Below, piece by piece: positions 15,107 to 18,006 of a DNA stretch of 64,000 bases. The stretch lies in the NCBI RefSeq assembly GCF_016026235.1, contig NZ_CP065613.1; one strand, given 5' to 3'. Below the pieces are notes generated by a model. It was not told the DNA's origin, did not search any database, and worked only from the letters and a program-made list of their open reading frames with translations. The stretch is from Escherichia coli (GTDB lineage Bacteria > Pseudomonadota > Gammaproteobacteria > Enterobacterales > Enterobacteriaceae). The position numbers and the translations under genes are program-made. Numbering within the stretch: the stretch's first letter is position 1; each line of letters opens with the position of its first letter.

Positions 15107-15360
15107 TTAATCACCGGCAGCCACGTTATACAGGCCAGTTGATGGATCGATTGTTATCAATGATATCTTCATGAGTCGGTGTCTCACCCAGCTTACCGAA
15201 GCTGGCATAAAGTGAAGGCAGACGGGCCCGTCCTTCTCCCTTTTTCGCCAGAGGGAAAGCGCGAAGCATGGTGGCAGCCTCCCAGTCACAACAATAGGAT
15301 GGTGTGCACGGCTGCTGACGCCATGATTCAGCGATAGAGCCGGAAAATACGGGGTCAAAG
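15107..15360 (-). pseudogene. 3' fragment of an unidentified gene, interrupted by the IS10-like element and cut 5' by IS911
   Basis: reading frame ..LVNDTGFDP | VFSGSIAESWRQQPCTPSYCCDWEAATMLRAF.. is continuous across the IS once one copy of the 9-bp duplication is removed (16664-16761 joins 15360). Confidence 0.3.
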
Positions 15361-16654
15361 CCTGAGGGATCCCCAGAAAATTTAGTAAACCATTATCATA
15401 TTGGTATACCGTTGCTGTAGAACTTTCAGCCCTGCGTCAAGTGACAGTGTGTTTAGTATGAGTGGAGAATGTCGAATCACATTCTCCGCCAGTTTTAATA
15501 ACGAGATGACTCGCCTGTGCTTCACTGTATTTGCCTGATATTTATGATGTATCCCTTTGTTTTCCAGGCTGAAACCGCTTAACCACATAATGATACTGGC
15601 TAATGTTGCGATCAGACTCAATACCGTGACCCGCCCGGATGAATGACTGGCACCAAACCGTAGTCCAAATCCCCAGCGAGGATTTTTTTCATCCCTGAAA
15701 TTTTGCTCAATTTGCATTCTACGGCTGTATAATTTCATTACCTGTTTTGGCGAGAACTCAGTACTGTTTGTGAAAATAAACCATGGTGATTTCCCGGCAG
15801 TACGAGCTTTAGCCGTCACCGATGGTCTGGTTGCTCTTTCCTTCGAGCGTTTAAATCTACGACCTTTAGGCTTACTTTTATAAAGATAAAAATGCCCTTC
15901 ATGTTGTGCATTTTTATCTCGACCCAGCAGGCCTTCACCTAAATAAATTGCTGTCGTTGATGCTTTTGTGCCTGAGTCCGACACCTTTTCCCAGCCATTA
16001 CCAACATTGTAATAATGATTGCCCAGTACCCGGCAAATATAGGTCCAGCCACGGGAGCGGAGCTGTTGGAACCATCGCCCTGAAAACCGGCATCTGTAAT
16101 AACAATGACATCAGTCCCGGGGGAAAAGCACTCAGCAAGCGATTCCAGAAAACGCTCATGTACATCTGCATTCGCTGTCTGTGATGATGGAACGACACAA
16201 CTCATCAACGGTAAAGAACGCCCGTCACATGCCAGGCTTGCCCGCAAAAGCTGAAAACGAGAGGCATGATAAGCACTCCAGTCAATGAGTATCACAACAC
16301 GAGACATTCCCCGCGTAATCTTTTGGGTAATTCGCTGAAAAATGGTGGAAACCTCATTTTGCAAATGTCGATTCCCCAACAGTCGATCCACCCGCTTTAT
16401 TTTGTTTTTAACTGATGCCGTACCGGTTAAATGACGCCCGATACTGGTAAGTGTGAGGGAAGCGCCATTTATTACAGCATTAGTTGCGTCAATCAGTGAT
16501 TTTTGACGGTAAAGATGCAAAGGGGCCAGTATATTGTTAAGGAAATTTTGGCATAATGAACGTGCAGGCATAGTGGTGATCTCCTTGAAATTGTTAGCAC
16601 AATCAATTAGATCACATCTCACTATGCCTGTCTTGTTTTCTGGGGATTCCTCAG
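15361..16654 (-). mobile_element. IS10-like element (IS4 family), 1294 bp, flanked by 9-bp direct repeat GGGTCAAAG
   Basis: terminal IRs CTGAGG(G/A)ATCCCC; duplication at 15352-15360 and 16655-16663; transposase resembles IS10 (KIKRVDRLLGNRHL, YSRRMQIEQNFRDEK). Confidence 0.75.
15382..16571 (-). pseudogene. IS4-family (IS10-like) transposase, frameshifted near 16070-16085
   Basis: N-terminal and C-terminal halves in different frames (ORFs 15939..16673 and 15382..15984); each half aligns to IS10 transposase. Confidence 0.7.
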
Positions 16655-16760
16655 GGGTCAAAGCCGGTATCATTAACCAGAGTCATCGTGACCTGTACTG
16701 CGGCTGGATGATCTCCTGCTACTGCAACTGCTAGGCGACCGCGGCTCCCTTCAGGTAGTC

Positions 16761-18006
<1,246 letters not shown>

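Follow-up and report, generated by a model that had tools for sequence, protein, structure and literature searches.

A frameshifted ISEc60 copy within the truncated yjhV pseudogene of Escherichia coli

Beyond the end of the fec operon, a stretch of Escherichia coli chromosome (contig NZ_CP065613.1, assembly GCF_016026235.1) carries one insertion sequence close beside another, which raises the questions of what the first element is, where it begins and ends, which gene it entered and whether it can still move. We examined these questions in a 64,000-nucleotide stretch of that contig, referred to here as the window, following up a sequence-only reading of the same DNA. Our main reading, to which we give a probability of roughly 90%, is that ISEc60 transposed into an already truncated yjhV, generating a 10-bp target duplication, and that its transposase gene bears a one-base frameshift. 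On the opposite strand the fec operon stops at 14568, and the insertion leaves it untouched.

Positions 15362–16654 hold a copy of ISEc60, 1293 bp long, with its transposase on the minus strand; it is the only one in the 64-kb window. The 1295 nt from 15361 to 16655 are 99.8% identical over their whole length to many records annotated as ISEc60 at NCBI, in which the coding sequence is named ‘IS4-like element ISEc60 family transposase’. Among these records are those of enteroinvasive E. coli CFSAN029787 and related strains (both chromosome and plasmids), of Shigella dysenteriae pINV plasmids and of E. albertii plasmids; the chromosome of E. coli FDAARGOS_943 matches ISEc60 in 38 places. By the usual ISfinder rule of thumb, elements with more than 90% DNA identity are the same insertion sequence, and the window element exceeds this value against the NCBI-named records. 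In pairwise alignment with two intact copies (L001 and L002) only two positions differ, one of them a base substitution and the other a missing C.

15362–16654, minus strand: ISEc60 copy, 1293 bp (1294 bp in intact copies), with 99.8% identity to annotated ISEc60 from end to end.
15382–16571, minus strand: transposase pseudogene, with codons 1–165 in frame from the ATG at 16571 and the rest one base off (frames 0 and 2).
16533: the one substituted base, A in the window against G in the reference copies, silent, leaving the N-terminal translation unchanged (pairwise alignment).
16078–16080: frameshift site, CCC here and CCCC in intact copies (GGG and GGGG on the coding strand), from the alignment to L001 and L002.

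The family assignment was made with the protein of intact copies, whose sequence the window copy yields in two frames. This transposase of 396 aa (WP_001111632.1) matches the NCBIfam model NF033591, IS4 family transposase (E 8.5e-108; 360.5 bits, cut-off 152), and the Pfam domain DDE_Tnp_1 (PF01609; E 1.8e-20; 74 bits, cut-off 23). IS4-family elements have one transposase open reading frame (ORF) and no programmed frameshift (PMC2266710), and intact ISEc60 copies likewise encode the protein in a single ORF. The family signature Y-(2)-R-(3)-E-(6)-K, which includes the glutamate of the DDE triad (PMC2266710), is present as YSRRMQIEQNFRDEK (Y282, R285, E289, K296); in the window copy this YREK motif lies downstream of the frameshift. 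Members of the IS10 subgroup measure 1200–1350 bp and have 5′-CT termini (PMC2266710, Table 1), in agreement with the size of ISEc60, intact or as found here, and with its ends, both of which begin CTGAGG. A PDB sequence search with the transposase gave no match at E up to 0.01, and a literature search on ISEc60 returned mentions of the name only.

The transposase is homologous along its full length to that of IS10 from plasmid R100 (labelled ‘ISVsa5 family’ at NCBI), with 36% identity over 375 residues (E 1e-74); the DNA of the two elements is only about 54% identical in global alignment. Their sizes are similar (1294 and 1329 bp). D97, D161 and E292 form the catalytic triad of IS10 and align with D97, D160 and E289 of ISEc60, which are therefore only putative catalytic residues by alignment, and the IS10 counterpart of the YREK stretch is YSKRMQIEETFRDLK. 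Each of the ISEc60 termini, CTGAGGAATCCCC and CTGAGGGATCCCC, agrees at 12 of 13 positions with the outside (CTGATGAATCCCC) or inside (CTGAGAGATCCCC) end of IS10. By these matches the element is an IS10-like member of the IS4 family, as the sequence-only reading had proposed, and its specific name is ISEc60. Homology to IS10 further suggests non-replicative, cut-and-paste movement through a DDE active site.

Can this copy still move? Two minus-strand ORFs, 16673–15939 and 15984–15382, jointly cover the element. The frame that starts at the ATG follows the intact protein to G165 and then departs from it, the +2 frame reproduces R166 to the C terminus exactly, ending in a stop at 15382–15384, and the two together rebuild WP_001111632.1. 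The frameshift recognized in the sequence-only reading is thereby confirmed and traced to the one missing C. It parts D97 and D160 from E289: the predicted product, of about 210 aa, would consist of 165 native residues, including both aspartates, and a 45-residue out-of-frame tail. Because E289 and the YREK motif are lost from this only product, the copy encodes no functional transposase. Programmed frameshifting was considered and rejected, since intact copies have one continuous ORF; the shift is a mutation, a one-base deletion.

The earlier description of the copy as ‘probably immobile’ goes too far. Both ends match those of active-looking intact copies, so the window copy, which cannot move by itself, is better called non-autonomous and is not necessarily immobile. 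An intact ISEc60 elsewhere in the genome might still mobilize it. To call it ‘immobile’, one would need the genome to lack any intact copy, or the transposase to work exclusively in cis. The transposase of IS10 acts largely in cis.

It is also conceivable, although unlikely, that the frameshift is a homopolymer error of sequencing or assembly and that the copy is truly an intact, autonomous ISEc60. The sole disabling difference from active-looking copies is the loss of one base from a run of four, and a single silent substitution is all that otherwise separates this recent-looking copy from them. Against an error, the window gives no sign of poor sequence quality, the 330 nt that flank the element match K-12 at 329 positions with no indels, and finished genomes do contain ISEc60 copies with frameshifts, L017 and L019 among them.

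The limits of the element required more than the window itself to define. Its inverted repeats, CCTGAGGGATCCCCAGAAAA and TTTTCTGGGGATTCCTCAGG (15361/2–15380 and 16636–16654/5), are complementary at 19 of 20 positions, and the 19-mer CTGAGGGATCCCCAGAAAA, with up to three mismatches allowed, occurs twice in the 64-kb window against 0.04 occurrences expected, which bears out the inverted repeats noticed earlier. A perfect 12-nt direct repeat, GGGGTCAAAGCC, is found at 15351–15362 and 16654–16665, 1303 nt apart. It reaches into both inverted repeats, and the boundaries are therefore ambiguous from the window sequence alone. The assignment reached from the comparisons below is as follows.

15362–15380, plus strand: terminal inverted repeat far from the transposase start, CTGAGGGATCCCCAGAAAA, with GATC at 15368–15371; 12/13 against the IS10 inside end CTGAGAGATCCCC.
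16636–16654, minus strand: terminal inverted repeat adjoining the transposase start, reading inward CTGAGGAATCCCCAGAAAA; 12/13 against the IS10 outside end CTGATGAATCCCC.
15352–15361: left copy of the target duplication, 10 bp, GGGTCAAAGC, from the empty site and the repeat length with CTGAGG/CCTCAG ends.
16655–16664: right copy of the target duplication, 10 bp, GGGTCAAAGC, on the same evidence.

Of 5,426 complete E. coli genomes, 2,677 have the empty site, without ISEc60. It reads ...GAAAATACGGGGTCAAAGCCGGTATCATT..., and ...AATACGGGGTCAAAGCCGGTATC... in two examples (L003 and L004); around the insertion point its sequence is ...ACGGGGTCAAAGCCGGTA.... Relative to it the window carries an additional 1303 bp, with collinear flanks on both sides. 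Ten base pairs that were once present a single time are now duplicated, the footprint of staggered transposase cleavage followed by gap repair.

Three observations fix how those 1303 bp are divided between element and duplication. Both IS10 termini begin CTGA. The base that precedes CTGAGG varies among ISEc60 copies: L006, the insertion in mppA, has T there, and L010 has G. When species-representative genomes were scanned for the same 19-nt terminus, it turned up at 74 loci, in Photorhabdus, Xenorhabdus, Pragia, Serratia, Kosakonia, Salmonella diarizonae and other taxa, and among 69 ends of these relatives from other genera the base after CCTCAG is C in 55, A in 8, G in 5 and T in 1. Because of this terminus homology, the variable adjoining base and the 69 related ends, we take the ends to be CTGAGG...CCTCAG, which makes the element 1293 bp here (1294 bp when intact) and the duplication 10 bp.

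Other copies of the element tell the same length. With symmetric ends, the flanking repeat is exactly 10 bp at 18 of 22 further ISEc60 copies compared; once same-site copies are collapsed, the reconstructed sites number 14, of which roughly ten are independent. Copies flanked in this way lie in cynX, mppA and mscL, beside ogt, beside an ibs toxin gene, in a fimbrial operon and at several plasmid sites. The exceptions are two copies flanked by homopolymer-rich sequence, where the repeat is 11 bp, copies that bear indels, and L010, the flanks of which are unrelated to each other. Relatives in other genera show 10 bp in five cases (L027, L045, L073, L077 and L091) and 9 bp in three (L044, L046 and L053).

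The sequence-only reading had instead given a length of 1294 bp and a perfect duplication of 9 bp; the flanking direct repeat is real, and its length is 10 bp. An element of 1294 bp (15361–16654) with the duplication GGGTCAAAG, like that of IS10, is in our view very improbable. It adds up to the same total of 1303 bp, and the 12-nt repeat that overlaps both ends lets it fit the window sequence. Direct target repeats of 9 bp are also what is tabulated for the IS10 subgroup (PMC2266710, Table 1), from which ISEc60, here and in most other copies, departs by one base, and the three 9-bp relatives named above share its terminus. This division, however, makes the ends asymmetric (CCTGAGG... against ...CCTCAG) by one extra base, so that it disagrees with the inverted repeats that accompanied it in the earlier description, a boundary discrepancy of one base pair of the kind that description had itself named as refuting. 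The extra C is not conserved, being replaced in L006 and L010 as noted, both IS10 termini start at CTGA, and most ISEc60 copies, at about ten independent sites, have exactly 10 bp with symmetric ends.

The argument has one dependency. At every ISEc60 site examined the duplication begins with G, and the ISEc60 sites taken alone are therefore also compatible with a right end one base longer and a 9-bp duplication; that version is excluded only by the relatives in other genera together with the symmetry of the ends. An 8-bp duplication with CCTGAGG...CCTCAGG ends was rejected because the outer C/G varies (L006, L010 and the other-genera ends), and an exact 8-bp repeat at a degenerate relative of 82% identity (L024) was set aside, as that copy has indels and internal stops. 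That ISEc60 instead arrived by homologous recombination, or within a larger transferred segment, is extremely unlikely: L010, without matching flanks, indicates that recombination between copies happens, but here 10 bp that the empty site has once are perfectly duplicated, which marks direct transposition, and the window runs collinear with the empty site to either side of the element; no donor context with the same junctions was found in complete E. coli or GTDB representative genomes.

When 15362–16664 is removed, one unbroken minus-strand frame runs from the neighbouring element to a TAA at 15126–15128. The continuous frame announced in the sequence-only reading is thus present, with its stop at 15126 and not at 15107, where an ORF in a different frame, one with stop codons upstream, has its end. 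The restored frame has 109 codons and encodes LPEGSRGRLAVAVAGDHPAAVQVTMTLVNDTGFDPVFSG...NNRSINWPV. The gene, which that reading had left without a name, is identifiable: the reconstructed remnant matches K-12 yjhV (b4286) at 329 of 330 nt, with an identical translation, and on this match the interrupted gene is the K-12 pseudogene yjhV, which in K-12 lies between fecE and IS911B.

15126–15361, minus strand: 3′ part of the yjhV remnant, with TAA at 15126–15128 and including the left duplication copy, from the K-12 yjhV match.
16665–16758, minus strand: 5′ part of the yjhV remnant, with CTA (Leu) at 16758 as the first surviving codon, from mapping to K-12 yjhV.

In other E. coli annotations an 85-aa sub-ORF of the remnant (WP_000177057.1) is called ‘hypothetical protein’ or ‘NAD(P)-binding domain-containing protein’, and the insertion falls in its codons 8–11. 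Homologues of the remnant are mostly fragments, and among the names given to them at source are ‘predicted dinucleotide-binding enzyme’ and ‘3-hydroxyisobutyrate dehydrogenase, partial’. A protein of Raoultella terrigena (P0033) has 139 additional N-terminal residues, starting MKIGIIGTGNIGG..., with precomputed Pfam matches to NAD(P)-binding Rossmann domains (PF03807, PF03446 and PF02558), and another homologue (P0008) has its natural C terminus in common with the remnant. Homology to these longer Rossmann-domain proteins points to an ancestor that was an NAD(P)-dependent oxidoreductase of roughly 250 aa. What survives as yjhV is its C-terminal 44%, the last 109 codons, with the nucleotide-binding fold missing. 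An NCBIfam search of the remnant gave no match, and a sub-threshold Pfam match to DRL_cat (E 0.055) was rejected in favour of the direct homology to the longer proteins.

The missing part was removed by the neighbouring element.

16761–18007 (end approximate), minus strand: degenerate IS3-family element (IS911/ISEc52-like) with a split orfB, from identity to ISEc52 and IS911B.

This neighbour has an IS911-type OrfA and a split OrfB. Its identity to plasmid copies annotated as ISEc52 is 98.6–99%, and the two pieces of K-12 IS911B match it at 90% and 97%, so that the earlier label of IS911 for the upstream cut is fair in the sense of ‘IS911-like’. In other E. coli genomes the same place is annotated ‘IS3 family transposase, frameshifted’. 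Judged by the longer homologues, the element at 16761 took away some 139 codons from the start of the ancestral gene. The KpLE2 region of K-12 has the same order, fecE–yjhV–IS911B, with the same remnant, the same cut position and the same kind of IS3-family element; it differs in having no ISEc60 in yjhV and in that its IS911B is interrupted by IS30D and IS600, whereas the element in the window is unbroken, resembles ISEc52 more closely and has shf–capU–virK after it.

The order of the two insertions follows from their distribution. The junction of the yjhV remnant with the IS3-family element, without ISEc60, occurs in about half of the complete E. coli genomes, the 2,677 cited above, which corroborates the earlier statement that the target was already truncated. 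The yjhV::ISEc60 insertion is absent from all 5,426 complete E. coli genomes searched, and an exact search for its left junction gave no matches (0) in GTDB species-representative genomes. With the truncation widespread and the insertion found in none of these genomes, we conclude that the truncation is old and that the ISEc60 insertion is recent and lineage-specific; the near-identity of the window copy to active-looking copies also fits a recent insertion. yjhV was non-functional before ISEc60 arrived, and the insertion is not expected to have any consequence for it.

The history that we propose would run as follows. ISEc60, with its presumed cut-and-paste DDE transposase, would have transposed into the chromosomal fec–yjhV–IS911–shf–capU–virK island and landed in a yjhV pseudogene that an IS911/ISEc52-like element had previously truncated. 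Staggered cuts 10 bp apart at GGGTCAAAGC would have produced the 10-bp duplication. Later, one base would have been lost from the GGGG run at codon 165/166 of the transposase gene, unless its absence is a sequence error.

Reconstruction of the 14 target sites also yields a preference. Their consensus, G|GGGAWWWCCC|C, is symmetric, with G at position 1 in all 14, at position 2 in 13 and at position 3 in 11, and C at position 9 in 12 and at position 10 in 13; the window target GGGTCAAAGC matches it only partially. IS10 also has a symmetric target consensus, NGCTNAGCN, which differs in sequence from GGGAWWWCCC, and its duplication is 9 bp in contrast to the 10 bp of ISEc60. Compared with annotated ISEc60 elsewhere, the window copy has the same inverted repeats, a duplication of the same length, the same G-rich/C-rich type of target and, barring the frameshift, the same 396-aa transposase, less one C at 16078–16080 and with one silent substitution at 16533.

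On this basis we tentatively suggest that ISEc60 and a wider set of Enterobacterales elements with the terminus TTTTCTGGGGATTCCTCAG may be an IS10-like lineage of their own, in which the target is cut with a stagger of 10 bp at short symmetric sites composed of a G-run, A+T and a C-run (G|GGGAWWWCCC|C), although we hold this to be somewhat less probable than its opposite. The target sites of this putative clade would often lie inside GC-rich palindromes. Elements with the same terminus include MITE-like derivatives of 204–343 bp, and the full-length members have a conserved hairpin over the transposase start.

In the window, that hairpin lies as follows.

16558–16637: stable hairpin over the transposase ribosome-binding region and the start codon at 16569–16571 (dG −34.8 kcal/mol, z −6.7).

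A T-run adjoins it on the plus strand. The hairpin is kept across 15 related insertion-sequence ends from other genera, in which 6 of the 26 predicted pairs show compensatory changes. Like IS10, ISEc60 thus has a stable hairpin over its transposase start, at the position where IS10 has RNA-OUT/RNA-IN pairing and a fold-back structure. An Rfam scan of 15000–17000 gave no match at E up to 1, and so recognized no RNA-OUT, and a promoter and terminator consensus scan of 16450–16760 found nothing. The hairpin may have a role in antisense-RNA or translational-occlusion control; with no match to an RNA-OUT model, any resemblance to IS10-type antisense control would be functional only. As in IS10, there is a GATC site in the end far from the transposase start (15368–15371) and another near the 5′ region of the transposase gene (16610–16613), and these may parallel the Dam-sensitive sites of IS10.

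The feature is a known insertion sequence inside a known pseudogene, and nothing in it is new. The locus should be annotated as a yjhV pseudogene, the remnant of an NAD(P)-binding oxidoreductase, which is interrupted by an ISEc60 copy with a frameshifted transposase and a duplication of 10 bp and which adjoins a degenerate IS911/ISEc52-like element. Absent as it is from the 5,426 complete E. coli genomes, yjhV::ISEc60 could be used to mark the lineage of the source strain. The abundance of ISEc60 itself in enteroinvasive E. coli and on S. dysenteriae plasmids gives a hint as to what sort of genome the window derives from. A lineage with a 10-bp stagger, if true and previously undescribed, would be a small addition to the biology of the IS10 family.

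ISEc60 appears, from a comparison of 14 reconstructed insertion sites, to favour the symmetric target G/GGGAWWWCCC/C. The set comprises the window site (15340–15361 joined to 16655–16676) and those in the database records L002, L005–L009, L011, L014, L015, L018 and L020–L023; about 10 of the 14 are independent, because some represent the same plasmid locus. Position 1 of the target is G at every site (14/14) and position 10 is C at 13/14. GC-rich imperfect palindromes, which resemble terminators or REP elements, often enclose the target sites.

On plasmid pCFSAN029787_01 of an enteroinvasive E. 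coli (L001, approximately 197–2795), two ISEc60 copies lie directly in tandem, with one copy of the 10-bp target, GGTAAATCCC, between them and the same 10 bp on both outer flanks. This pair is a head-to-tail IS dimer.

Between the transposase-proximal end of the element and the transposase ATG there are no in-frame stops, so that a flanking ORF can run into the transposase frame. In the window this read-in frame (16571–16673, minus strand) is opened by an ATG at 16673, inside yjhV DNA, and for the ogt-proximal copy of E. coli FDAARGOS_943 (L002, CDS 1522–2943) the PGAP annotation is a fused 473-aa ‘IS4 family transposase’. The transposase start codon itself is spanned by a stable hairpin (window 16558–16637; −34.8 kcal/mol, z −6.7) that is followed by a T-run and occupies the place of RNA-OUT in IS10. 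Related elements, among them those of Photorhabdus, Xenorhabdus, Kosakonia and Salmonella, conserve the hairpin through compensatory base changes; an Rfam scan of window 15000–17000 matched no family.

The insertion lies in a chromosomal island (window approximately 12900–20084 and beyond) with the order fecABCDE–yjhV–IS3–shf–capU–virK(–lpxM/msbB2), in which shf encodes a polysaccharide deacetylase; about half of E. coli genomes have this island. The window capU is intact (362 aa), and that of several reference genomes contains an internal stop. The IS3-family element adjoining yjhV (16761–18007) is degenerate, with orfB in two pieces (17607–17008 and 17011–16769), and is nearer to ISEc52 (98.6–99%) than to K-12 IS911B (90–97%); the same element also houses a group II intron (ltrA) in certain E. 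coli genomes (RIVM strains, L099). The start coordinate that the sequence-only reading gave for the interrupted locus derives from an 83-aa ORF (15107–15358, minus strand) that overlaps yjhV in another frame. The database ‘proteins’ P0035 and P0017 are chimeras that join this frame to that of yjhV, a pattern that points to indel variation among assemblies, or to sequencing errors, within the pseudogene.

The exact 19-nt ISEc60 terminus, TTTTCTGGGGATTCCTCAG, is present at 74 loci (L025–L098) from many genera of Enterobacterales. Some are full-length relatives of 1298 bp; others are short MITE-like elements with the same inverted repeats at their ends and 9–10-bp duplications.

Examples of the MITE-like elements that share the ISEc60 terminus.
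L046, Serratia, 204 bp
L073 and L077, Pragia fontium, 277–278 bp
L075 and L078, 341–343 bp
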